A stretch of DNA of 64,000 bases, taken from a candidate division WOR-3 bacterium. Lineage in GTDB: Bacteria > Hydrothermota > Tepidihabitantia > Tepidihabitantales > Tepidihabitantaceae. Of the stretch, positions 10,904 to 64,000 are shown piece by piece. How positions within the stretch are numbered: position 1 is the first letter of the stretch; each line of letters opens with the position of its first letter. The translations under genes and the position numbers were made by a program. The notes under the pieces were generated by a model. The model did no database searches. It saw nothing but the letters and a program-made list of their open reading frames with translations, and was not told where the DNA came from. The DNA lies in assembly GCA_039801085.1 (NCBI GenBank), contig JBDRTY010000001.1, forward strand, positions 236,354-300,353, given 5' to 3'.

Positions 10904-12195
10904 TTTCTGCCCAGTACCCGGCGGTAGACCGCATCCACATGCCGGACCAGATTCCGCAGTTGGAACACTGCCTCCAACTCAGACGGACTGAGATGGTGCT
11001 GCACGGTGCGGTCATTTCTGGCGAGCTGGCTCAGGGTTGTGCCCGAGCTGATTGCTTCGAATGACAGTTTCTGCACCAGTCTGTAGGCACGGGTGCGGTT
11101 CATACCCTTGTTTACCAGTGCCAGCAGCAGTGCCTGCGAGAAGAAGGTCTCACCGGAGATTTTCAGGTTTTTCTCCATCTGGTCAGGTCTGACCACCAGT
11201 CCGGCGAGGACCCGGTTCATCTGCCGGAGACAGTAGTGGAGGAGGGTAAAGGCCTCGGGAATGATAATCCGCTCGGCGGCAGAGTTGGTCAGATCCCGCT
11301 CGTGCCAGAGGGGGATGTTCTCGTAGCTGGCTAAGGCGTAGGAACGGATTACCCGGGCAAGGGAACAAACTCTTTCGCAGATGATCGGATTTTTCTTATG
11401 GGGCATTGCTGAAGATCCCGCCTGAGATTTGCCAAACGGTTCACTTACCTCCCCGATTTCGGTCCGCTGAAGGTTGCGGATCTCAGTAGCGATCCTTTCT
11501 AGCCCGGCAGCGATCAGTGCCAGCATCGAGAGGAGAAAGGCATGCCGGTCGCGCGGGATCACCTGGGTGGACACCGACTCGACCTTCAGATTAAGCAGTT
11601 TCAAAACCCTTTTTTCCACATCCGGGCTGAGCTGGGTATAGGCGCCGACGGTGCCGGAGATCTTGCCGTAGCCGATTTCCATCCGGGCGAGTTTGATCCG
11701 TTCAATACCCCGATTGATTTCCGCCAGCCAGGACAGGCATTTCAACCCGAAGGTAATCGGTTCTGCATGGACGCCGTGGGTTCTGCCGATCATCGGGGTC
11801 CAGTGGTAGCGGCGGGCAAGATCGGCGGTGGTCTTCTGGAGCTCGAGTAGTGCTGTGTGGATTATATCCAGCGCCTGAACGCAGCGAATCGCCAGGGCGG
11901 TGTCAACCACATCGTAAGAGGTAAGTCCGTAATGGACATACTTGCCTGCCTCGCCGGCACTTTTTGCCACGCTGCGGGTGAAGGCGATCACATCGTGGTT
12001 GGTTTCCTTTTCAAAACGTTCAATCTCACTGATTTTAAAAGTTGCCTGCTGGATTTTTTCTGCTGCCGGCTTCGGGATAATACCCAGTTCACCCTCGACC
12101 TTTGCCACTGCTTTCTCCACGAGCAGCCAGGTCTGAAACTTTGCCTCTTCAGACCAGAGCTGAGCCATTTCCGGTGTCAGGTAGCGGGAGGTCAT
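10900..12195 (-). CDS. purB: Adenylosuccinate lyase
   Basis: GSSAMPHKKNP fumarate-lyase signature, HYGLTSYDVVDT, GRTHGVHAEP. Confidence 0.97.
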   Translation of the reverse strand: MTSRYLTPEMAQLWSEEAKFQTWLLVEKAVAKVEGELGIIPKPAAEKIQQATFKISEIERFEKETNHDVIAFTRSVAKSAGEAGKYVHYGLTSYDVVDTALAIRCVQALDIIHTALLELQKTTADLARRYHWTPMIGRTHGVHAEPITFGLKCLSWLAEINRGIERIKLARMEIGYGKISGTVGAYTQLSPDVEKRVLKLLNLKVESVSTQVIPRDRHAFLLSMLALIAAGLERIATEIRNLQRTEIGEVSEPFGKSQAGSSAMPHKKNPIICERVCSLARVIRSYALASYENIPLWHERDLTNSAAERIIIPEAFTLLHYCLRQMNRVLAGLVVRPDQMEKNLKISGETFFSQALLLALVNKGMNRTRAYRLVQKLSFEAISSGTTLSQLARNDRTVQHHLSPSELEAVFQLRNLVRHVDAVYRRVLGRK

Positions 12196-12200
12196 AAATA

Positions 12201-13331
12201 CTATCTCAGCTGGTAGAGAATTCTTAACTGCTCACCCTTGCGATCAATAATCAGATCAATTGAACCCTGAAGCCGGTTCAGCCGTTCCTGGAGCATCCGG
12301 GCAGAGCTGACTACCTTGCCCTGAAACACCAGAATTACATCGCCCGGCAGCAGGCCGATTTTTTCGGCGACCGAATTTTCATTGACGCCAACGACCACTA
12401 CTCCCTTCGTATGGGCAAGACCGAAGCGGCGCCGGAGCACCGGATTGATATCAGCAACAACAAGACCCAGTCCGGTGCTGAACTTTTCATACTCAATCTG
12501 AGTTTCTCCGAGGGCTTCGCTGACGAACCTTTTAACTTCATTAATGGGCCGGGCGAATCCGACCCCTTCCGAACCACCGGCATGGGAAAAAATGAAGGTG
12601 TTGATACCGATGACCTCGCCCAGCGCATTGACCAGCGGACCGCCCGAATTTCCGGGGTTGATTGCGGCATCGGTCTGAATCATATCGGTATAGACGGCAC
12701 CGCCTCTGCCGGAACGGATGTCCCGGTGCAGTGCGGAGATGACGCCAACGGTGACGGTCGGCTGGGCATCTTCAATCAGGAAGCCGAACGGGTTACCGAT
12801 CGCGATTGCCCATTCGCCGATCAGCAGCTGGTCGGAATTACCTAGGGGTGCTACCGGCAGATTATCGCCCGAAATTTTCAGCAGTGCCAGATCCCGGTCG
12901 GGATCAAGAGCGATAATCTCCGCATCAAAGCTCCGGTTGTCAGGCAGGGTTACCTTGATTTTGGTTGCATTGCTGACAACATGGGCATTGGTAATGATAT
13001 AACCCTTGGCATCTACAATTACCCCCGAACCCATGGATTTGATTTCCTGCCGGAAGGTGTGCCGGGGAAAGAAGTCACGGAAGAAGTCGTCAAACCCGAA
13101 GATATCAAACGGGTCATAGGATACAATCCGCGTCTGAGTCACTACGACTGAGACCACCGCCGGGCTGACCTTCTGAGCAGCGATGACAATCGCATTTACC
13201 CGGGACCGGTCAATTTCTGTATTAACCTGTTCAACTGCAGGCCGGGATGGAGTTTTTTCGGTTGTGGCGCCACAGGCGAGGGGCAGAAACGCCAGCAGTA
13301 ATGTAATTATATTAAGAGGGTCGTATTTCAT
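12201..13331 (-). CDS. HtrA/DegP-family serine protease with one PDZ domain
   Basis: ITNAHVV, DLALLK, INPGNSGGPL triad; probable lipoprotein signal (FLPLAC). Confidence 0.93.
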   Translation of the reverse strand: MKYDPLNIITLLLAFLPLACGATTEKTPSRPAVEQVNTEIDRSRVNAIVIAAQKVSPAVVSVVVTQTRIVSYDPFDIFGFDDFFRDFFPRHTFRQEIKSMGSGVIVDAKGYIITNAHVVSNATKIKVTLPDNRSFDAEIIALDPDRDLALLKISGDNLPVAPLGNSDQLLIGEWAIAIGNPFGFLIEDAQPTVTVGVISALHRDIRSGRGGAVYTDMIQTDAAINPGNSGGPLVNALGEVIGINTFIFSHAGGSEGVGFARPINEVKRFVSEALGETQIEYEKFSTGLGLVVADINPVLRRRFGLAHTKGVVVVGVNENSVAEKIGLLPGDVILVFQGKVVSSARMLQERLNRLQGSIDLIIDRKGEQLRILYQLR

Positions 13332-28447: not shown

Positions 28448-28481
28448 AGCTGATTTTAGTTTCTCCTGAGGGAAATGTCAA
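28448..28481 (-). promoter_or_regulatory. Leaderless promoter of mnmG
   Basis: TTGACA-17nt-TAAAAT-5nt-GTG (ATG 3 nt further). Confidence 0.75.
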
Positions 28482-28509
28482 TCAGCCGTCTCTTGGGTGA
28501 TATTCAGAT

Positions 28510-28537
28510 TTGACACCAATCGGGTTCAGGTTAAAAT
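28510..28537 (+). promoter_or_regulatory. Promoter of the barrel/nucleotidase operon
   Basis: TTGACA-16nt-TAAAAT, 9 nt before ATG 28547; no Shine-Dalgarno sequence. Confidence 0.65.
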
Positions 28538-28546
28538 CGTTTAACC

Positions 28547-29365
28547 ATGCGGACGCTCTTGCCCCTGTTTATATTGCTGGGAATGGCGGTAATGCCGGTT
28601 TATGCCCTTTTTGAGGAAAATGCATCTGGAGTCCGGGCAGAGGGGATGGGCGGCAGTTTCTGTGCGGTGGCGGATGATCTCAGTGCGCTCGATTTCAATC
28701 CTGCGGGGCTTGCCTTTGTCCGGGAGAGACAGTTTCAGAGTTTTTACAAGCTGCTTTACAGCGGGGTGGGGGTGAATCTGCACACATTCCATGCCGGTCT
28801 GGCACTCCCCCTGAGCCGGTTCGGTTGTCTGGCAGGGCGGGTCCAGGAGACCGGTTTTGAGCTTCAGTCCCAGCGTTCGCTCAAGCTTGGACATGGCTTT
28901 TTACTGGCAGAGGGACTGGCGTTCGGTTACGGAATAAACGGCTATAATCTCGTTCAGCAGGAGCTGGGTTCCGGATATGCCTTGGGCCTGGATGTAAGCC
29001 TCTTTGCCCGGATTGCCCGTTACTGGACCGTGGGGTTTTATGGTCATAATATCAACCTGCCGAAAATCGGTTCTTCAGAACTGCCGTCAGTGCTTGTCCT
29101 GGGACTGGGGTTTTCTCCCCGGCAGGGCATTCAGTCATCGCTGCAGGTGAGCAAGGAGCCCGGGATGCCTACCAGAATTGCTCTGGGGCAGGAGTTTGAG
29201 GTTGTCTCCGATTATCTTATCCTGCGTGCCGGTGTCCAGAATGAACCGGTCCGGTTCGCCTTCGGACTGAGTACCGGTTTGCGGCGGGTCGGAATTGACT
29301 ATGCGCTGATCACCCATCCGGTTCTACCCTTTACTCATAACTTCGGACTGCGGGTGAAATTTTAG
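28547..29365 (+). CDS. PorV/PorQ-family (FadL-fold) outer-membrane barrel
   Basis: Signal peptide; family signature RAEGMGG...ADDLSALDFNPAGLA; ends FGLRVKF. Confidence 0.7.
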   Translation: MRTLLPLFILLGMAVMPVYALFEENASGVRAEGMGGSFCAVADDLSALDFNPAGLAFVRERQFQSFYKLLYSGVGVNLHTFHAGLALPLSRFGCLAGRVQETGFELQSQRSLKLGHGFLLAEGLAFGYGINGYNLVQQELGSGYALGLDVSLFARIARYWTVGFYGHNINLPKIGSSELPSVLVLGLGFSPRQGIQSSLQVSKEPGMPTRIALGQEFEVVSDYLILRAGVQNEPVRFAFGLSTGLRRVGIDYALITHPVLPFTHNFGLRVKF

Positions 29366-29369
29366 CCTG

Positions 29370-31754
29370 ATGCTGCTGGTCTTTGTCTGGCTATTGGGTC
29401 TGTGGACAGCAGATAATCAGCTGGATATCAACCGGGCAAACCGGGCGGAAATCGGTCAGCTGCCGGTGGATTCCATGACCGCGGACCGGATCTATGAGTA
29501 TCTGCAGCTTTACGGCCGGTTCAACAGTATCTATGATCTGCTGCAGGTTCCCGGAATTACCCCCGAGAAACTGGATGAGCTGAAGCCGGTGATTTACATC
29601 CGGCCCCGGACTTGGGAGGAGCGGGCAACAGAGAATGTCCAGCGGATTCAGCGCCGGCTGGCAGCTGAGGACAGTCCGGGCAGGGCGGTAGTGGAGGAGT
29701 GGCAGGATCTGCTGCTGGATCCGCTCAACATTAACCGCGCAACGGTAGATGAGCTGCTGCTGCTGGAGAATGTGTCGCTGGTTGATGCGGTGGCGGTCGT
29801 GAATTTCATCCGGCAGGGAGGGAGGATCACGAGCCGTCGGGATCTGGCGAGCCAGGTTCCCGGTCTTTCAACCTATGGGTATCGGGGGATGCGGAATTAT
29901 GTGACCTTTCAGGACCGGGCTGATACTGCCCGGGTCAGGATCTGGAGCGGGAACTACCGGTTGAAATACGAGAGCGGGCAGGACTGGGAGGTGCTTACCA
30001 GTGCAGAGGAGTTTACCGCAGCATTGAACAGCTTGGTTCAGGACAGCGCCCGGTTCCGGGAGGCTGGGTTTACCGAGCCGGAGCTGGCATTTTACCGGGA
30101 GAGGTTGACCCAGGAGCTGGAGTTTCGAAAAAACATGGGCAATACGGGCATAATGCGCCACCGGTTACGGGCACGGATTGGTGAACAGATCCGGGCTGGC
30201 GGACTGGTGGAGCAGAATTTATACGAAAAGCCGGGTTTCAGCGGTGTCAGGGGGTATGTGACTGTTGACAAAATCGGTCCGGTCCGGCGGCTGCTCGTCG
30301 GTGATTACCGGCTGACTCTGGGGCAGGGACTTTTAATCGATAACAATTTTGAGCTGATGGCAAGGACGCATAAGCGAACCGCCGGGCTTTTCGGCGAGCT
30401 GAATGAAAATCCCGGTTTTGGGCTCAGAGGAGCGGCGGTTGAGCTGAAATTATATCGGTCCGGCTTATTGGGATTTTATTCGCTGGCAAAGCGGGACGGA
30501 ATTCTAAATCCGGACAGCACGGTAAACTGGTATATCATTTCCACACCACGCTACCCGACATTTAAAAATTTATTCGGTCAGACCGATGCCGGAGCCAGCT
30601 GGTCCGCTGATCTTTCCCAGCTGGTGTTTCTGCCACTCGGAACGCGCCTGGGTGTAAACGGTCTTTTTTCCCGCACCAGCCGGAGTCTGCAACCGGCTGC
30701 CCGCTATCTTGAACTTCCTGGTGATGCGGAGGTCATTGATGATCCGAACTGGGCCCGGCTGGATACGGGCAGAACCCGGCTGTTTTATTCTGCCGATTTC
30801 CGGACGGTGATTAACAATTTTGCCCTGGAGGGGGAGGTTGCTCATCAGCATCGGGGTGGCAGTGCCTATCTGCTGAAGGGTTATCTGCAGCATGATCTGC
30901 TGAATCTGACCGTGCTTTACCGGCATTATGATGTCAGTTATGTCAATCCGTATAACCGCGGGTTCTGTGAGGAGCTGCGGTTTGAGGATACACCACTGGA
31001 AAAGCCCTACCGGCTCATTGACCCGGCGTATGCTGCGCTCCAGAATTTCCCGATGCCCAAAGCGGAGCAGGGGTTTTTTGCCGAGATGCGCTATCAGATC
31101 TCCCGGCAGATTACCTTTACCCGTGCCTATCTTGATGTCTGGCGCAACCTTGCATATGGGGCGGACAATTTCCGGTTTCAGGCGGAAATGGAATACCGCC
31201 CGGTTTTTCCACTGCGGCTGCGCTTCCGGCAGAAGGTTCAGTTGAAGGAGCGACCGAGGCTGGTGCTGGGAACCGGCTCACTGTCCCTTGAGTCCTCACT
31301 GCGGGCACTGGTTTCGCTTTCCAACTGGGACTATCTGACTGGCGAACTGCGGTACAGCAGAACCCGGCTGACGCCAACGATGAAATACGATGACCGGGCG
31401 AGTATTGACGGCGACTTTGTGCTCGTGCAGTGGGAGCACAATTTTTCGGACGATTTTCAGGGGGAGCTGGGAATTGCCGGCTGGCGCAGCGGCGGCATGT
31501 CGAACTGGATGTTTGAGGACAACGGGATTGATTTTGTTGACGGCGACGGGTGCAAGTGGTATCTGGCATTGACTAACCGCCTGACCAATAATCTCCTTGT
31601 TTACCTGAAGTTCCGGCAGAAGTTAAGCATATTTCCCCATACCGGGCTGAGTGGAAATGAGGGCATCCATTATCCGGAAGGCATGCCGGTTCGGGATTTT
31701 ATGAGTCAGAGCCGGCGGTTTGATATCTGGCTGCAGATTGATTTTCTCTGGTGA
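29370..31754 (+). CDS. Two ComEA-like helix-hairpin-helix domains fused to a large outer-membrane barrel
   Basis: LDINRANRAEIGQLP...LLQVPGIT and PLNINRATVDELLLL... HhH_3-like repeats; amphipathic strands; C-terminal WLQIDFLW. Confidence 0.75.
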   Translation: MLLVFVWLLGLWTADNQLDINRANRAEIGQLPVDSMTADRIYEYLQLYGRFNSIYDLLQVPGITPEKLDELKPVIYIRPRTWEERATENVQRIQRRLAAEDSPGRAVVEEWQDLLLDPLNINRATVDELLLLENVSLVDAVAVVNFIRQGGRITSRRDLASQVPGLSTYGYRGMRNYVTFQDRADTARVRIWSGNYRLKYESGQDWEVLTSAEEFTAALNSLVQDSARFREAGFTEPELAFYRERLTQELEFRKNMGNTGIMRHRLRARIGEQIRAGGLVEQNLYEKPGFSGVRGYVTVDKIGPVRRLLVGDYRLTLGQGLLIDNNFELMARTHKRTAGLFGELNENPGFGLRGAAVELKLYRSGLLGFYSLAKRDGILNPDSTVNWYIISTPRYPTFKNLFGQTDAGASWSADLSQLVFLPLGTRLGVNGLFSRTSRSLQPAARYLELPGDAEVIDDPNWARLDTGRTRLFYSADFRTVINNFALEGEVAHQHRGGSAYLLKGYLQHDLLNLTVLYRHYDVSYVNPYNRGFCEELRFEDTPLEKPYRLIDPAYAALQNFPMPKAEQGFFAEMRYQISRQITFTRAYLDVWRNLAYGADNFRFQAEMEYRPVFPLRLRFRQKVQLKERPRLVLGTGSLSLESSLRALVSLSNWDYLTGELRYSRTRLTPTMKYDDRASIDGDFVLVQWEHNFSDDFQGELGIAGWRSGGMSNWMFEDNGIDFVDGDGCKWYLALTNRLTNNLLVYLKFRQKLSIFPHTGLSGNEGIHYPEGMPVRDFMSQSRRFDIWLQIDFLW

Positions 31755-31763
31755 GGAGGTACA

Positions 31764-32864
31764 GTGAAATTGAGATTCTGGAAAGTTCTGCTCAGCTTAC
31801 TTGCCGGTGGAACCGGTGCATTTGCCAGTGTGCCGGTGCGAAACTGGTGGGGCGAGGAGCTGACTGTTGAGCCATCAGGCATATTCCTTTATCCTTCAAA
31901 ACTGACGGGTTACCGCGGAGCAGCAGTCTTTGCCGGACTGGGCAGCAGCATGCTGAGCGAGGAGCGGACCCGGCTGGTATACGACCAGTTTGAGAATACG
32001 ATCGGCGAGGCGGCGTATGCAGATAACATCAGCTGGTCGCTGTATTTCGGACCTTTTGCCGGTGTTTATCGCTGGAGGGGATTCGGTTTCGGTGCCGGGC
32101 TGGCACAGATCCGGGATTTCAGCTATCAGTACCTGAAGGAATATCTGGACGATTTTTATGTGAAAATCGGTGAGGACCGGGTTGAGCAGTCAGGCGGCAT
32201 CTGGAACGGAGTGCTTGCGGTCGGATACAGTCCGGTTTCGTGGCTTGAGATCGGTGCCGGAGGAAGATATCTTTATGGTCAGCGCAGACTGGAACAGGTG
32301 CACATCCGGGTACCGGAGACCTCAGTGGTCAGCTTGAAAAACAGCATCAGGGGTGCGGGCTGGCAGGCAGGTGCGGGGTTTGTTTCCCGCGCCGGCTGGA
32401 GGGTGGATGCGTGTTACCAGTCAGGTGTCCGGTTTGGCAGCGAGGATTCAGATGCACTCAGGAAACTACCCTGGTGTGCCGGTATCGCTGCGGAATTGAA
32501 TGTCCCGGGTGCGCTGCCAGCAAGAATGCTTGCGGAGGCAAAGCTGTCCGGCTGGTCTGAAGTGGATTCCGGTTTCCGGAATGTGCTGAGCGTGCGGGCG
32601 GGGATTGAGCATCGGCTGCTCAATCGGGTGCGGATGAGCTACGGGTTCGGTGTCGACCCGCTCTTTTCCAATTCCGCGGTGCACCGGCTTCTGGGGCGGT
32701 TCGGGCTTGGATTTGATGTCAGCCGGCTGCGGCTGGATTTTAATCTTCAGGCGAGCCGGGAGGAACTTGATGCCGGAGATTTTGCCCTGCCGGTGGAACC
32801 GGCAGACATACGGGTTTATCAGGACCGAATCTGTCTGATGCTTAATTTCCGTTATGATATTTAG
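31764..32864 (+). CDS. Putative outer-membrane beta-barrel (FadL/OmpP1-like)
   Basis: Signal peptide, alternating aromatic/Gly strands, C-terminal LMLNFRYDI. Confidence 0.55.
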   Translation: MKLRFWKVLLSLLAGGTGAFASVPVRNWWGEELTVEPSGIFLYPSKLTGYRGAAVFAGLGSSMLSEERTRLVYDQFENTIGEAAYADNISWSLYFGPFAGVYRWRGFGFGAGLAQIRDFSYQYLKEYLDDFYVKIGEDRVEQSGGIWNGVLAVGYSPVSWLEIGAGGRYLYGQRRLEQVHIRVPETSVVSLKNSIRGAGWQAGAGFVSRAGWRVDACYQSGVRFGSEDSDALRKLPWCAGIAAELNVPGALPARMLAEAKLSGWSEVDSGFRNVLSVRAGIEHRLLNRVRMSYGFGVDPLFSNSAVHRLLGRFGLGFDVSRLRLDFNLQASREELDAGDFALPVEPADIRVYQDRICLMLNFRYDI

Positions 32865-32870
32865 GGGCAG

Positions 32871-34409
32871 ATGGGAAGAAAACAGGTGAAGTTCCGCCGT
32901 TTCGGGCTGTTCGTCAGTCTGCTGCTGGTCACCGCTGCGGCAGATGCTGAAATTCAGCATCTGATTATTGTCCATACCAATGATATCCATGGGGCCCTGC
33001 TGCCGGCTGAGGCTTACTGGCTGGATAACAACTTTCCGCCCCCGCTGGCTAACGCCGCAGGAGCGGTGACGGTAATTCGGGAGTTGCGGGATTCAGCGGT
33101 TCGGCACGGATACGGATTTCTGCTGCTGGATGGTGGTGATATCTTCAAGGGAACGCCGGTAGGGGATTTCACCCGCGGCCAGGCGGTCATCGACTTTTTC
33201 CGGCAGGCAGGGTATGATGCGGTTGCGCCTGGCAATCACGATTTTGATTTCGGCTGGCAGGTGCTGAAGGAGCTGGCTGATTCCTCCCGGATTCCTTGGA
33301 TCGCAACCAATGTCCGGGTACCGGATGGCGACAGTCCGCCCGGTTATCTGAAGCGGAGCTGCATTTTTGAACGGGGCGGTATCAAGATTGGCATCCTGGG
33401 GTTTTTGACCAAGTATCTTTACGGTATGGTGAACGAGTCGCTGACGGGCGGGCTTAATATTCTCCCTTATTATGATATTGCCCGGGAAGAGGTGACGAAA
33501 CTGCGGGAAGCCGGGGCTGAGATCGTCATTGCACTCAATCATATCGGTTACACCCACGATCAGCGGTTTGCCGATTCAGTATCCGGGGTGGATGTGATTA
33601 TCGGTGCGCACAGCCATACCGGTGTTGAGCCGCCTTACGAGAGTCCGAAGAACCATGTCATCATCCAGCAGGCGTATTCAAAACTGAGTTCAATCGGGGT
33701 GCTGGATATCCGTTTTGACACCAGAAGTCGACGCATTGTCGGTTATGAGGGCAGGTTGATTGATCTGCTCGCCGATGAGGTGCCCATGGATTCTATTTAT
33801 TCCCGGCGGCTGGATTCAATCCGGCAGACTGCGGAGAAGGGGTTTGATGAGGTTCTGGGCTATTCACGGCGTGAGCTGACCCGGGGCGGATTTACCGAAA
33901 CACCGATGGGGAATCTGATTACCGATGCCATGCGGGAGCGCTTCGGCACGGAAATTGCGGTGCACAATTCCGCCGGTATCCGGGCAAACATCCCTGCCGG
34001 TCCGGTGACCTATCGCCACATTTATCAGGTGGATGTTTTCGGGAATACCGTGGTTACCGGCAGGTATACCGGCAGACAGATCAGGGAGATTCTGGAGGTG
34101 TCGGTAAACGGACATCATGCAATCTTTCAGGTTTCAGGGGTGAAAATGAGATACTCGCTGAAGCGGCCGATCGGGGAAAGAGTATTGTGGGTGGAAGTTA
34201 ATGGTGCCCCGCTTGACTCGAACCGGATTTATACTCTGGCAACCAATTCCTATCTGGCGTCCGGGACCGGTGAATACCACATCTTTGCTGAGGGCGCTGA
34301 TCTGGAGGACAGCTTTCTCCCGTTGCGCGATGTGCTGGCGGACTACATCCGGCGTCATTCTCCGGTGGATGCCAGGATTGAGGGCAGAATTGTGCTGATT
34401 GACCAATGA
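32871..34409 (+). CDS. Exported bifunctional metallophosphatase / 5'-nucleotidase (UshA-like)
   Basis: HTNDIHG, LDGGD, PGNHDFD, LNHIG, GAHSH; 5'-nucleotidase C-terminal domain (NSAGIRA, FQVSG). Confidence 0.92.
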   Translation: MGRKQVKFRRFGLFVSLLLVTAAADAEIQHLIIVHTNDIHGALLPAEAYWLDNNFPPPLANAAGAVTVIRELRDSAVRHGYGFLLLDGGDIFKGTPVGDFTRGQAVIDFFRQAGYDAVAPGNHDFDFGWQVLKELADSSRIPWIATNVRVPDGDSPPGYLKRSCIFERGGIKIGILGFLTKYLYGMVNESLTGGLNILPYYDIAREEVTKLREAGAEIVIALNHIGYTHDQRFADSVSGVDVIIGAHSHTGVEPPYESPKNHVIIQQAYSKLSSIGVLDIRFDTRSRRIVGYEGRLIDLLADEVPMDSIYSRRLDSIRQTAEKGFDEVLGYSRRELTRGGFTETPMGNLITDAMRERFGTEIAVHNSAGIRANIPAGPVTYRHIYQVDVFGNTVVTGRYTGRQIREILEVSVNGHHAIFQVSGVKMRYSLKRPIGERVLWVEVNGAPLDSNRIYTLATNSYLASGTGEYHIFAEGADLEDSFLPLRDVLADYIRRHSPVDARIEGRIVLIDQ

Positions 34410-36028
34410 AAATCTGGCAGTTGAAACCGGCGGACGAAAGGCAGATTCAGAGTGTGGCTGAGGGGTGTGGTATTTCCCGGGAGTTTGCCCGGATGCTGGT
34501 TGTGCGCGGGGTTACGACCGGAGACGATGTTCGCATCTGGCTGCACCCGCGCCTCTCCGACCTCCATCCCAGCGAGCTCCTGCCGGATTTCGAGCCGGCA
34601 GTGAACCGGATTCAGCAGGCGATTGCACACCGGGAGCGGATTCTGGTCTGGGGGCATGATGACCTGGACGGGATTACTGCGGTTCTGGTCATGGTGAAGG
34701 TGCTGAGCAGTCTGCAGGCGGATGTTGATTATCATATTCCGGTAAAGGGCAGAGATAAGCATGGGCTTGATGCCCGGCTGGTGGCAGGTCTGCCGGCAGA
34801 AAAGAAACCGGGGCTGATCATCACGGTTGACTGCGGAATTTCCAATCACAGCGATATTGCCGGGCTGAGACAGCAGGGGGTGGAGGTAATTGTCACGGAT
34901 CATCATGAGGTGGTCATGCCTTTACCGCCAGCGCTGGCGGTGGTTGATCCGAAGCGCAGTGACAGCGAATATCCCTACAGACAGCTGACCGGTGCCGGCG
35001 TGGCACTGAAGCTGATGATGGGGCTGGTGGCACACCGGCTCGGCTTGAGCGTTACTCAGTTTGTTTCCGCTCAGCCGGAGCTGCTGGAGCTGGTGACACT
35101 GGGGACAGTGGCGGACCGGGCGCCCCTGACCGGTGAAAACCGCATTCTGGTGAAACTGGGGTTTGACCGGCTGATGAAGACCAGGCTGCCGGCGCTGCGC
35201 GCGGTGCTGGACAACTTGAGAAACGGGAATGAACCGTTGACGGTATCAACATTTCTTACTGAGCTGCTGCCGCTGTTTGCCGCGGCGAACGGCAGTGAGG
35301 GGGTAAGAAAATTTCTTTCCCGGGATCTGGCAGAAGTGCAGGCGTGGGTGAAAGAATTGACAGTCCGCAGTCAGGAGTGGCGGCAGGAGGCGGAAAGGAC
35401 ATTTCAGCTGGCACAGGCGCATGTCCGGCTCGGTGACGGCATTCTGTTTGTTCAGCATCCGGAGCTGTCGCTCCGGGCGCTGGGGTTCAGTGCCGCACGA
35501 TTGAAGGACCGGTATCAGGTGCCGGCAATTGTCATCGGCCGGCGGGATGATGTCTGGGTCGGCGAGTGCCGGGGTATTGAGGGTGTGGATCTGATGGAGC
35601 TTTTGCGTGCCCACCGCAACTTCTTTATTGATTTCGGCGGGCACAAGAAGGCAGCCGGATTTACCATCAGCCCGGACCGGGTGGATGAGTTCATCATTTC
35701 GGCGGAGCGGTTCGCCCACGAAAACTTTGCCGGCAGAATCATGCCGGAGAATCAGCTGACTGCAGATGCAGCCCTGCCCTTTTCCCGGTTCAATACCGAG
35801 ATCTGCCGGCTGGCACCGTTTGGGGAGGGGAACCCGGAGCCGGTTCTGATTTCCGAGCCGGTCCGCCTGATTCTCCAAGATAAGGGCTTTGTGCCTGACA
35901 CCCGCCCGGATTTGGTTCTCTTCTGCCGTCGGAGCGGTCTGGAGATTCAGCCGGAGATTTCCTATTCGGTCCTGTATTCCGTTGATGACCTGTGCCGGCT
36001 CTGGCTCATTGATCTCCAGCCCGTATAA
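34406..36028 (+). CDS. recJ: Single-stranded DNA exonuclease RecJ-like (DHH/DHHA1)
   Basis: GHDDLDG, ITVDCG, VTDHH, GTVAD, FGGHKKAAG, LAPFGEGNPEP; central region divergent. Confidence 0.8.
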   Translation: MKIWQLKPADERQIQSVAEGCGISREFARMLVVRGVTTGDDVRIWLHPRLSDLHPSELLPDFEPAVNRIQQAIAHRERILVWGHDDLDGITAVLVMVKVLSSLQADVDYHIPVKGRDKHGLDARLVAGLPAEKKPGLIITVDCGISNHSDIAGLRQQGVEVIVTDHHEVVMPLPPALAVVDPKRSDSEYPYRQLTGAGVALKLMMGLVAHRLGLSVTQFVSAQPELLELVTLGTVADRAPLTGENRILVKLGFDRLMKTRLPALRAVLDNLRNGNEPLTVSTFLTELLPLFAAANGSEGVRKFLSRDLAEVQAWVKELTVRSQEWRQEAERTFQLAQAHVRLGDGILFVQHPELSLRALGFSAARLKDRYQVPAIVIGRRDDVWVGECRGIEGVDLMELLRAHRNFFIDFGGHKKAAGFTISPDRVDEFIISAERFAHENFAGRIMPENQLTADAALPFSRFNTEICRLAPFGEGNPEPVLISEPVRLILQDKGFVPDTRPDLVLFCRRSGLEIQPEISYSVLYSVDDLCRLWLIDLQPV

Positions 36029-36033
36029 ATCCT

Positions 36034-37200
36034 GTGTCCCCGGCAAAAATTTCCATTACCCGCCGGAAATCGGCACGCGGCCATCTCTGGGTGTTCGCGG
36101 ATGAAATTAAGAGAATTGAAGGGGAGCCGGGTAAAGGTGATCTGGTCCGGGTATATGAGCACGGCAGGCTGGTCGGTTCCGGGATGTTCAATCCCGATTC
36201 GCTGATCCGGGTCCGGCTTTACTCGTTCCGCGATGAGGAGCTGGATGAGGAGCTGCTGGTTCAGCGGCTGACGGCAGCGCATCGGCGGCGCCAGCAGAAA
36301 CTGCCTCAGGAACAGGATTTCCGGCTGGTATTCGGAGAGAGTGATTTTCTGCCCGGACTGGTGATTGACAAATATGGCGATCACTTTGCGGTTCAGGTTT
36401 ATGCTGCGGGGTTTGACCGCCGCATCGAAATGGTGGTCAGTGCGCTGTGCCGGCTGTTTCCGGCAAAGGCGATCTATGAGAAGGATGACATCAAGCTCCG
36501 GGAGCCCGAAGGACTGGAGCGCCGGGAACGGCTGCTATACGGTCAGCCGAATCCGGACCTCATCATCTCGGAGAATGGAGTCCGGTTTTATGTGGACATC
36601 GCCGGCGGGCAGAAGACCGGTTACTTCTTCGACCACCGGCTCACCCGCAGGAAGGTCCGGCGTCTGGCACGAAACCGCCGGGTGCTGGATGTGTTCTGCT
36701 ACACCGGTTCCTTTGCAATTAATGCGGCACTGGGCGGGGCAACCGAGGTGATTGCGGTTGATATTTCGTCCGAAGCCTGCCGCTGGGCAGAGCGGAACGC
36801 CCGCCTGAACGGGGTTGAGGCGCGCTGCCGGTTTGTCACCGCCGATGCCTTTGAATACCTGCAGGAACTTCAGGCGTGCGGTGAGCGGTTTGACCTGATC
36901 AATCTTGACCCGCCCGCATTTATCAAGAGCCAGAAGCAGAAGGTGTCCGGGATCCGGGGCTATGAGAAGATCAACCGGCTGGCACTGGCACTACTGAAAC
37001 CCGGCGGGATTCTGGTCTCTTCATCCTGTTCCCATTATCTGTTCTGGCAGGACCTGCTGGATGTGGTCAGCAATGCCGCCGCCGAACTTAACCGGCAGTT
37101 TGTTATCCTTGACCGTTCCACTCAGGGCCCGGACCATCCGGTTCTGCCGCAGATGCCCGAATCTGAATACCTGCGCTGTCTCATTGTTCAGGTGAATTAG
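36034..37200 (+). CDS. RlmI-family PUA-domain SAM-dependent rRNA m5C methyltransferase
   Basis: GHLWVF, GESDFLPGLVID, GQKTGYFFD, LDVFCYTGSF, LDPPAF, SSCS. Confidence 0.9.
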   Translation: MSPAKISITRRKSARGHLWVFADEIKRIEGEPGKGDLVRVYEHGRLVGSGMFNPDSLIRVRLYSFRDEELDEELLVQRLTAAHRRRQQKLPQEQDFRLVFGESDFLPGLVIDKYGDHFAVQVYAAGFDRRIEMVVSALCRLFPAKAIYEKDDIKLREPEGLERRERLLYGQPNPDLIISENGVRFYVDIAGGQKTGYFFDHRLTRRKVRRLARNRRVLDVFCYTGSFAINAALGGATEVIAVDISSEACRWAERNARLNGVEARCRFVTADAFEYLQELQACGERFDLINLDPPAFIKSQKQKVSGIRGYEKINRLALALLKPGGILVSSSCSHYLFWQDLLDVVSNAAAELNRQFVILDRSTQGPDHPVLPQMPESEYLRCLIVQVN

Positions 37201-37703
37201 ACCTGAAATTTTACCTTTCTGCTGAAGATTGAGTCTGATATCACCAGAAGAGGATCCGGCAGGAAGACACGGGCGACCGGTGGCAGGACACTGCGGGGAG
37301 CCGGGCAGACAGCAGAACCGAAAACCGAGGGCGAGACAGGGGTTGAACTGGGATGCGGAGTTCGGCCTGAACTGAGGCTGGCGTCAGGCTTCTGAGCGAG
37401 CGTCGGGGCAGGACCTGCAGCCGGACCGGGGCTAGCCCCCGGCTACCCCCTCCGAAACAAATTCCGGGTATAACATTGTTTTAAGTGCCAGCCTGATAAT
37501 TACTTAGAGACAGAAGTTAAACGATACATTAACAAGAAGTAGTTATGGAGGTGAAAGGGAAGGGGAGGTGTAAGCAAGAGGCTCGGTTTAACTGTCACCC
37601 GGGTGGTTTGTTTCCGGTTACGGTCCGGCAGTCATGCATCGGGTTAATTATTCCTTAAATTTTCTTGACTTGTAGTCTTGCTGATTTATCATATTTTCTT
37701 AGC

Positions 37704-63273: not shown

Positions 63274-64000
63274 TTACTGCTGCCGGTAGCGCCGGGCGGC
63301 ATCATCCAGAGCCTGTTTCGGAGTTTTTGCTCCCAGTGTCGCCGCCTCCAGTTCTTCCACCAGCGCTTTTCTGCCGGCAAGCCACTTCAAGCCCCGGGGC
63401 TCGAAAACTCCGTATTCGAGCTGCCGGTAGGCGGCAAGCAGTCCCGGCGTGGTGGCAAAGCGCTCCTGAAGTTGCGGATCGTCAAGACAGGAACGGTGAA
63501 TCGGCACATACCACGTGCCCAGCGACCATTTTACCTGCTGTTTCGGAGCAATGAACCATTTGATAAACCGCCAAGCCGCCTTTTTTTCTGCCGGTGAAGC
63601 CTTCTTGAACATGCCGATGTTTGTGCCATAGATGATGGCGGCGGGTTTACCTTCCACCGGAATCGGTGCCATGCCGACGGGAAATTTTTCCTGTCCGGCA
63701 ATCGGGGCGCGCCAGGTGGAGCTGCCGGTGATGGTGGCGATTCTGCCGACAAGAAATTCTTCCATCGGGTTTCTGCCGGTGGCAGTAGTCTGGATACTGT
63801 CCCGGAATATCAGGTCAAGCTGAAAGGAAAGCACCTCAACGCCGAGCGGGCTGTTGAATTCCGGTTCGCCATCCTCCTGGCTGAGAAATCTGCCGCCGCG
63901 CTGGAGGAGCATGGAACCGAAAATCCAGATATCGGTACCGTTGGCGGTTGCCCAAGTTGCGATCGTGCCGTCAGGATTCCGGCGCAGCAGTTTCCGGCAC
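63274..64000 (-). CDS. ABC transporter extracellular solute-binding protein, family 1 (5' part outside the window)
   Basis: The frame stays open to the window edge; GTNIGMFKK...AAWRFIKWF...W...TWYVP pattern of sugar-binding proteins. Confidence 0.8.
   Translation of the reverse strand, partial: CRKLLRRNPDGTIATWATANGTDIWIFGSMLLQRGGRFLSQEDGEPEFNSPLGVEVLSFQLDLIFRDSIQTTATGRNPMEEFLVGRIATITGSSTWRAPIAGQEKFPVGMAPIPVEGKPAAIIYGTNIGMFKKASPAEKKAAWRFIKWFIAPKQQVKWSLGTWYVPIHRSCLDDPQLQERFATTPGLLAAYRQLEYGVFEPRGLKWLAGRKALVEELEAATLGAKTPKQALDDAARRYRQQ

Follow-up and report, generated by a model that had tools for sequence, protein, structure and literature searches.

We analysed a 64,000-nucleotide stretch of DNA from a candidate division WOR-3 bacterium (contig JBDRTY010000001.1 of assembly GCA_039801085.1, positions 236,354 to 300,353), referred to below as the window. 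Our subject was a run of six adjacent genes in it, g1 to g6, which encode three predicted barrel proteins, an exported nucleotidase, a RecJ-like protein and an rRNA methyltransferase (Table 1). The genes are separated by gaps of 4, 9, 6, -4 and 5 nt, the negative value being an ATGA overlap, and they follow a promoter-like site. This arrangement of six open reading frames (ORFs), gaps and promoter was exactly as an earlier reading of the sequence (the original prediction) had described it, and the domains which it assigned to g1-g6 matched our scans with domain models. Hydrophobic, signal-like N-termini were read by eye on g1, g2, g3 and g4. The host assembly consists of 1.9 Mb in 7 contigs, labelled G000:C1, C2, C4 and so on, and the loci of relatives carry L or G numbers.

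The ATG of g1 starts 10 nt past the end of the -10 box. Because of this short distance, the g1 transcript would be leaderless or nearly so, and the sequence suggests that the leader is very short or absent, without room for a Shine-Dalgarno site. Upstream of g1 lies mnmG in divergent orientation, and positions 28453-28537 hold back-to-back near-consensus promoters for mnmG and g1, each of the form TTGACA ... TAAAAT with 11 of 12 matches. At the other end, a terminator-like hairpin overlaps the stop codon of g6; we treat this call as weak, because terminator-like sites here were not enriched over shuffled sequences.

Table 1. Features of the g1-g6 locus and of the end of the window (window positions)
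Feature	Position	Strand	Remarks
Promoter-like site	28510-28537	+	TTGACA-16-TAAAAT; 11/12 matches
g1	28547-29365	+	ORF list; PorV/PorQ-type barrel (predicted), 272 aa
g2	29370-31754	+	ORF list; two HHH_3 domains and a barrel of ~24 strands (predicted), 794 aa
g2, HhH domain 1	29415-29594	+	residues 16-75; hairpins LP[IV][DS]S, PG[IM]T
g2, HhH domain 2	29712-29903	+	~residues 115-178; hairpins N-V-S-L, PG-L-S
g2, beta-barrel	29943-31751	+	residues 192-794, ~24 strands (predicted), C-terminal ...IDFLW
g3	31764-32864	+	ORF list; 14-strand FadL-fold barrel (predicted), 366 aa
g4	32871-34409	+	ORF list; UshA-type 5'-nucleotidase, predicted exported
g5	34406-36028	+	ORF list; RecJ-like DHH/DHHA1 paralogue
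g6	36034-37200	+	ORF list; RlmI-like 23S rRNA 5-methylcytosine (m5C) methyltransferase
Terminator-like hairpin and T-run	37187-37207	+	overlaps g6 stop; weak
Second UgpB-like binding-protein gene, 3' part	63274-64000	-	runs on to G000:C1:300874

The conservation of the locus was followed through g2. This gene had 106 full-length-type relatives in the protein collection, annotated only as 'helix-hairpin-helix domain-containing' or 'ComE-like', and 209 relatives among about 185,000 species genomes (one genome per species). Within the order to which the window belongs, the arrangement g1-g2-g3-g4 was intact in 18 of 18 loci, with g2 identity going down to 46%. Comparison across phyla was made with the best 80 of the 209 g2 loci, counting only those with room on the contig; the ORF calling in these loci was simple, so that the tallies are lower bounds. 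The best 80 came from WOR-3, TA06, Edwardsbacteria, Fermentibacteria/Aegiribacteria, Cloacimonadota, Hydrothermota, Latescibacterota and Stahlbacteria, and module loci span at least seven candidate phyla. The immediate upstream neighbour of g2 was g1 in at least 57 of 70 loci and the immediate downstream neighbour g3 in at least 50 of 72, and a 5'-nucleotidase-type enzyme was encoded downstream in at least 43 of 59. Two further kinds of gene recurred: phospholipase D (PLD) family genes downstream of g2 (6 of 59 loci), and upstream of g1 a gene for a large secreted protein with an oligonucleotide/oligosaccharide-binding (OB) fold and DUF5689, called the cargo below (33 of 53 loci). At least one of cargo, nucleotidase and PLD was present in 40 of the 43 loci with room on both sides. 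The co-conservation of g1-g4 in related genomes, for which the original prediction had pointed to synteny as a check, was thus found both in the 18 loci of the order and in the recurrence across phyla.

Presence and absence were then compared in 41 genomes of the window's order. g2 and the g4 orthologue were both present in 25 genomes and both absent from 15, and the one exception (G009) is a 63% complete genome whose contig breaks off no more than 0.7 kb past g2. The match between g2 and the cargo was complete (both in 26, neither in 15, exceptions 0), even though the cargo gene of the host is unlinked to the window's locus. The genomes without g2, g4 and cargo include two congeners and three other members of the window organism's family. 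We considered whether the locus might be a chance neighbourhood of unrelated outer-membrane biogenesis or porin genes sharing a promoter with housekeeping genes. Such an account could draw on g5 and g6, which do look like unrelated passengers, and on the three barrels, none of which was assigned to a curated family above its cut-off. It is, however, hard to reconcile with the cross-phylum synteny and with the almost exact agreement between g2, g4 and the unlinked cargo in their presence and absence, and we regard it as highly improbable. The arrangement recurs across phyla and is far beyond what chance would give.

The same comparison separated g5 and g6 from the genes in front of them. The product of g5 carries DHH and DHHA1 domains and scored 327 bits with the recJ model TIGR00644, under the cut-off of 396.9; the RecJ_OB match was limited to residues 461-488, most of the OB domain being missing. 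No signal peptide was found on g5, which indicates a cytoplasmic protein, and a canonical RecJ with a full OB domain (545 bits) is encoded at C1:15205-16941. g6, with PUA_3 and Methyltrans_SAM domains, is the sole RlmI-like copy in the genome. Every one of the 41 relatives had the g5 paralogue, also the 15 that lack g2. In a congener without g1-g4 (L121, G002:C31, 4853-8379), the gap between mnmG and g5-g6 is about 90 nt. The direct abutment of mnmG and g5-g6 there shows the g1-g4 block to be a discrete unit of gain or loss. We therefore rejected g5 as the nuclease of the module: it has no signal peptide, the canonical RecJ is encoded elsewhere, it is universal in the relatives, and the g5-g6 pair lies next to mnmG in the congener that lacks g1-g4. 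Among the 18 loci of the order, g5-g6 followed the module solely in the window's family. A g5-like gene was found downstream of g2 in 17 of 50 species loci. A g5-like DHH gene recurred in three loci of Edwardsbacteria, so that g5 may have a looser link to the module. We concluded that g5-g6 are most likely a pre-existing housekeeping pair behind the module, predicted to be co-transcribed with it here and otherwise uncoupled. The original prediction had taken the first four or five genes as a unit; the four-gene version is borne out by the intact loci and the phyletic match, and the fifth gene drops out. Because of this phyletic match and of the congener in which mnmG abuts g5-g6, the functional unit would consist of g1-g4 together with the cargo and the binding protein encoded beside the cargo, which is described below.

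The most distinctive member of the unit is g2. Its product matched HHH_3, a helix-hairpin-helix (HhH) family, in two stretches (E 2.7e-14, 53.4 bits against a Pfam cut-off of 27), and the domain was present in all 60 aligned members of the g2 family. The comEA equivalog model TIGR01259 was not reached by g2 (35.3 bits, cut-off 152). The AlphaFold2 monomer model, calculated with 60 homologues (pLDDT 85, pTM 0.81), begins with a short hydrophobic N-terminus, which is followed by two helical HhH domains and about 24 long beta-strands as assigned by DSSP; residues 212-254 form a helical insert between the first two strands. In a profile comparison, the HhH part of the family matched the tandem HhH domains of EEPD1, a nuclease-family protein (9yi2, E 1.6e-16), and ComEA (8dfk, 8dss). 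The hairpins themselves depart from the canonical G-h-G: the family-wide consensus reads LP[IV][DS]S, PG[IM]T, NVSL and PGLS, and the hairpin glycine is retained solely at the first position of the second motif in each domain. In domain 2, D139 is invariant and R175 nearly invariant.

No relative was found for the barrel of g2 in PDB or Pfam. Foldseek of the model against PDB returned generic large barrels only (FimD/PapC ushers, MtrB, SlpA and TonB-dependent transporters, TM-score 0.33 or less), the g2 profile matched HhH proteins and no barrel in PDB, and in Pfam the family matched HhH families only. Because neither PDB nor Pfam gave a barrel match, the g2 barrel is best regarded as a new family. 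None of the 60 members matched Plug, TonB_dep_Rec or CarboxypepD_reg, and the model, with about 24 strands against the 22 of a TonB-dependent transporter, has no plug domain. In our reading of the DSSP output, turns of 2-5 residues alternate strictly with loops of 8-45 residues, which would set the long loops on one face of the modelled barrel and the short turns on the other. If the C-terminus of g2 is periplasmic as in other outer-membrane proteins, this loop parity would put the HhH domains in the periplasm. We also asked whether a lack of TonB-dependent receptors could be the reason for a new barrel, and rejected this, the genome having 8 Plug domains.

A role of g2 as the translocon of the type IX secretion system (T9SS) was ruled out, since SprA is encoded elsewhere (C1:886206-889889, open frame 1883 aa) and was found in 36 of the 41 relatives, including genomes without g2. 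The barrels are hence not the T9SS translocon; the original prediction had named T9SS accessory parts unrelated to nucleotides as the identity that would speak against it. About 2 kb from the SprA gene lies a small ComEA-like gene (C1:884086-884277, open frame 149 aa), and the same neighbourhood was seen in several relatives.

The g4 product has Metallophos and 5_nucleotid_C domains, both over the Pfam cut-offs, and no NCBIfam equivalog model was matched at its cut-off. The motifs DIH, GD, GNHD and GAHSH can be read in the translation, along with a signal peptide that ends at AADA|EIQ. g4 is thus predicted to be an exported 5'-nucleotidase of the UshA type. Outside the window, on the reverse strand at C1:425078-426748 (L114:4078-5748), the genome encodes a 555-aa 5'-nucleotidase-like metallophosphoesterase with a C-terminal ComEA HHH_3 domain (E 1.5e-24), which joins HhH and nucleotidase functions within a single protein. 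Its HHH_3 is canonical, and its neighbour is a Por_Secre_tail protein. This fusion is conserved whether or not a relative has g2, and is therefore independent of the module.

In other phyla the cargo is encoded just upstream of g1. Among the 26 cargo members scanned, a T9SS C-terminal domain was detected in 20, the OB domain PF01336 in 16, DUF5689 in 14 (best E 1.9e-13) and a lamin-tail domain (LTD) in 6, and the OB region matched the N-terminus of the extracellular nucleases ExeM/NucH. The cargo of the host, at C2:498099-499733, has the OB fold, a DUF5689 score of 28 bits (cut-off 28.6) and the T9SS C-terminal domain. Its gene overlaps by 4 nt the gene for a UgpB-type lipoprotein binding protein (C2:499736-500992), and in the 41 genomes the presence of this cargo-adjacent binding protein followed that of g2. 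The closest solved relative of the binding protein is from Thermus thermophilus (PDB 7c0f series, E 9e-37). The window itself ends within the gene of a second UgpB-like protein (Table 1), which is 44-46% identical to the cargo-linked one and more widely spread, occurring in several genomes without the module.

The surroundings of the module in other phyla supplied an importer and further enzymes. In Edwardsbacteria, an ATP-binding cassette (ABC) importer of the CUT1 type brackets the module, with genes for two permeases and a binding protein on the upstream side and one for a MalK-like ATPase on the downstream side, and it is here that the g5-like DHH gene mentioned above is found. The host has single orthologues of these genes scattered over contigs: one CUT1 permease pair, the only one in the genome (C1:679124-680816), and the MalK-like ATPase (C2:262406-263470), both unlinked to either binding protein. 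TA06-type loci have, instead of the full nucleotidase, two signal-peptide PLDc_2 proteins of about 190 aa (L031:11607-12179 and 12191-12757) and a metallophosphoesterase of 300 aa. The best named relatives of these PLD proteins include NucT, Nuc, Zucchini and DrmC. In ten loci of Edwardsbacteria and some WOR-3 (L033:13343-14686 and homologues), the nucleotidase is followed by a secreted T9SS C-terminal-domain protein of about 450 aa (448 aa in Edwardsbacteria), and the next gene encodes another g1-like barrel. By eye the N-terminus of this protein (HAHTSYSDG) looks PHP-like; no Pfam or PDB match confirmed PHP.

These proteins bear on the question of the substrate. The module might serve another phosphorylated or polyanionic compound, such as nucleotide sugars, NAD, glycerophosphodiesters, polyphosphate or teichoic-acid-like polymers, with the HhH and OB domains as generic binders of polyanions. 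The family names of UshA-type enzymes include hydrolysis of UDP-sugars and NAD, the binding protein is UgpB-like, the hairpins of g2 are non-canonical, and the PLD fold also includes phospholipases and polyphosphate kinase domains. On the other hand, the cargo OB fold matches the N-terminus of the ExeM/NucH nucleases, and the PLD proteins are closest to NucT and Nuc among small single-HKD proteins. The HhH profile of g2 matches EEPD1 and ComEA, and DUF5689 has been tied experimentally to the DNA systems of Bacteroidales (Ddb) and Riemerella, where DUF5689 proteins are the DNA binders proposed (PMC12478041, PMC8459023). Taken together, these matches make a substrate other than nucleic acid quite improbable.

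The two smaller barrels appear to belong to the FadL superfamily. g1 scored 33.8 bits with the PorV/PorQ model NF033709 (cut-off 90) and matched Toluene_X and UPF0164 weakly; the PorV/PorQ family model (PorV_fam) matched all 36 g1 members at E 0.01 or less, the best at 1e-25. We concluded that g1 is, as judged from these profiles, a distant relative of PorV/PorQ. The g1 and g3 families are homologous according to hhalign (probability 97.7%). The AlphaFold2 model of g3 is a 14-strand barrel of the FadL type (pLDDT 91.8), with Foldseek TM-scores of 0.60-0.66 to FadL and 0.61-0.64 to BamG chains (9hiv_F, 9hjm_F and 9n2d_B). The BamG sequence model gave E 6e-5 and 22 bits on g3, against a cut-off of 250, and g3 would accordingly share the fold of Bacteroidota BamG without being a BamG equivalog.

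Elsewhere in the genome, at C4:74048-80340 (L119:4048-10340), the ComEC gene stands between two PorV-like paralogues of g1, one of which carries an FlgD_ig match and comes after a 569-aa protein that has a T9SS C-terminal domain. Such pairs of a cargo gene and a PorV-like barrel gene are a general pattern in the genome. We rejected these paralogues as a second copy of the module and regard them as ordinary cargo-and-barrel neighbours.

The PorV affinity raises the possibility that g1-g3 form a T9SS-related complex for attachment or assembly of the OB cargo, comparable to PorQ/PorZ or SprF/SprB, in which nothing is imported through g2 and processing takes place at the surface or by g4 alone. 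The family of g1, the fold that g3 shares with PorV, FadL and BamG, the sorting domain on the cargo, and the PorV-like paralogues that likewise adjoin genes for T9SS-domain cargo would all suit such a complex. It leaves unexplained why a barrel of about 600 residues should be fused to two HhH domains, why g4 is strictly lost together with g2, and why exported PLD nucleases and an ABC importer flank the loci, and the real translocon, SprA, is present regardless of g2. We consider attachment as the whole function of these barrels unlikely.

Based on these comparisons, we propose, with somewhat more confidence than doubt, that g1-g4 are an outer-membrane and periplasmic module which acquires extracellular nucleic acid or oligonucleotides, a counterpart outside the Bacteroidota of a DNA-utilization locus. 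The nucleic-acid theme predicted for the module is well supported by comparative evidence, and the binding and import of DNA by it are what we infer from that theme. The process could run as follows. The T9SS would secrete the OB-fold/DUF5689 protein, and g1 would hold its C-terminal domain at the surface, where the protein would capture DNA; g1 is proposed as the dock from its position downstream of the cargo gene in other phyla. The barrel of g2, flanked by g1 and g3, would then be the conduit through the outer membrane, and its HhH domains on the periplasmic side would hold the incoming strand in the manner of ComEA. Periplasmic enzymes would process the products, namely g4 in this genome and exported PLD proteins of the Nuc/NucT kind in TA06-type loci. 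The CUT1 importer would finally take up the products with the UgpB-like binding protein encoded beside the cargo. The original prediction had read the locus as one of nucleic-acid capture and salvage; the DUF5689/OB cargo, the PLD genes and the CUT1 importer strengthen that theme, and the import step stays a matter of deduction.

Several observations weigh against this proposal. Because the G-h-G hairpins of g2 are degenerate, DNA binding by g2 is not assured, and it may have been altered or lost. HHH_3 is also known from proteins without DNA-binding activity, and weak PsbU matches were obtained in 3 of the 60 members. The periplasmic placement of the HhH domains and an open pore would follow from the monomer model. 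No exported endonuclease is encoded in the window's operon. About a quarter of the loci, in a subclade of WOR-3, have the form cargo-g1-g2 without g3 or g4. As for the binding protein, its closest solved relative, the 7c0f series, is presumably the dinucleotide-binding protein of Chandravanshi et al. 2021, for which PMC12718374 gives only indirect support and a literature search on 7C0F and related ids gave no hit. Finally, with purC, a secretin, ComEC and TonB-dependent receptors, the host is in need of neither salvage nor another DNA channel. That purine auxotrophy drives the module was not supported, since the window genome and all 33 high-quality relatives have purC.

The secretin and ComEC also correct one element of the original prediction, in which the locus was a pilus-independent route: it cannot be described as the only route in this genome, and all or nearly all relatives have a secretin and ComEC too. 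They bring in another account, that the same module serves natural transformation, with g2 admitting DNA into the periplasm and handing it to ComEA and ComEC, as has been proposed for Riemerella, and nutrition as a by-product. ComEC was found in 20 of 21 relatives including this genome, which also has the small ComEA-like gene noted above, and transformation of Riemerella depends on three proteins, one with DUF5689, one outer-membrane barrel and one HhH protein of the periplasm (PMC8459023). The presence of competence genes does not follow that of the module, however: ComEC and the secretin occur in relatives with and without g2, and the constant companions of the module are the 5'-nucleotidase, PLD nucleases and the ABC importer rather than ComEC, ComF or DprA. 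We therefore think it unlikely that transformation is the purpose of the module and prefer acquisition of nucleic acid as such.

A bolder form of the acquisition proposal is tentative, and we hold it to be doubtful as it stands. In it, g2 would represent a new class of outer-membrane translocon for DNA or oligonucleotides, plug-less, with a built-in periplasmic ratchet like ComEA; two FadL-fold barrels would gate or assist it, and an OB-fold DNA catcher displayed by the T9SS would feed it. Such a translocon would need neither TonB energy nor a type IV pilus, and might be the main route for environmental DNA in several uncultured phyla related to Bacteroidota (WOR-3, TA06, Edwardsbacteria, Fermentibacteria, Cloacimonadota and others).

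In sediments and hot springs, extracellular DNA makes up a large reserve of phosphorus, nitrogen and carbon. To our knowledge, passage of DNA through the outer membrane in diderms has been described only for pilus-secretin machines and, between 2021 and 2025, for one TonB-dependent system of Bacteroidota. If the proposal is true, the module would be a third architecture, in which the channel carries its own ComEA-like domains, and it would give a role to a conserved, unannotated barrel family in phyla known only from metagenomes. The module could then also be a genomic marker for DNA-foraging lineages.

The module of g1-g4 was undescribed in the literature that we searched. The original prediction, which knew of no described system with such a composition, went too far in this respect, as related genes are known in Bacteroidales (ddbABCDEF) and in Riemerella, though with a different barrel. 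Of the systems considered, SprA-PorV and BamA-BamG of Bacteroidota resemble the module in that a large barrel is encoded between or beside FadL-fold barrels of the PorV/PorQ/BamG type. SprA has 36 strands and BamA 16, whereas g2 has about 24 in the model and no sequence similarity to either, and SprA is encoded separately. ComEA, the periplasmic DNA receptor or ratchet of, for example, Vibrio cholerae (PMC3879209), shares with g2 the HHH_3 domain and a site in the periplasm, at the mouth of the channel, that would be similar. In g2, the domains are in tandem and fused to the channel, G-h-G is replaced in 3 of 4 motifs, and there is no PilQ secretin as partner. The enzymatic end of the pathway has parallels too: in the scavenging of phosphate from extracellular DNA by UshA/CpdB of V. 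cholerae (PMC4714964), a periplasmic UshA-type 5'-nucleotidase acts last, as g4 would in the module, and the surface protein of the module carries an OB fold like the N-terminus of ExeM/NucH-type nucleases. Those systems use general porins and secreted nucleases, and have no dedicated barrel module.

Two systems with DUF5689 proteins come closest. In Riemerella anatipestifer, the transformation genes RA0C_RS04920, RS04915 and RS02645 (Huang et al. 2021, PMC8459023) encode a DUF5689 surface protein, a barrel with a carboxypeptidase regulatory domain and a periplasmic HhH protein, which form a pilus-independent system. The same three roles, surface protein, barrel and HhH element, recur in the module. 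In Riemerella, however, HhH is a separate gene and the barrel is of the TonB-receptor type, whereas here HhH is fused to a new barrel; and the Riemerella genes are linked by phenotype to ComEC, ComF and DprA, whereas the competence genes are not tied to the module here.

The ddbABCDEF locus of Bacteroides (Sharan et al., PNAS 2025; PMC12478041) is required for depletion of DNA. Its DUF5689 protein DdbD was modelled as a DNA binder on the TonB-dependent DdbC, and secreted nucleases belong to the system as well (PMC12478041). The two loci share a logic like that of polysaccharide utilization loci (PULs), with a proposed surface DUF5689 (OB-like) DNA binder, an outer-membrane barrel and exported phosphoesterases. 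They differ in the barrel, since DdbC is TonB-dependent and g2 matches neither a TonB transporter, Plug nor CarboxypepD_reg, though the genome has 8 Plug receptors, and g2 has the fused HhH domains and two flanking FadL-fold barrels. The binder here is a T9SS cargo with a C-terminal sorting domain, unlike DdbD, which was proposed to be a directly adjacent substrate-binding subunit, and the locus in the window has a 5'-nucleotidase and no endonuclease. A DNA system based on DUF5689 is thus a kind already known, and what appears to be new in the module is the barrel, the fused HhH domains, the two FadL-fold partners and the binder displayed by the T9SS.

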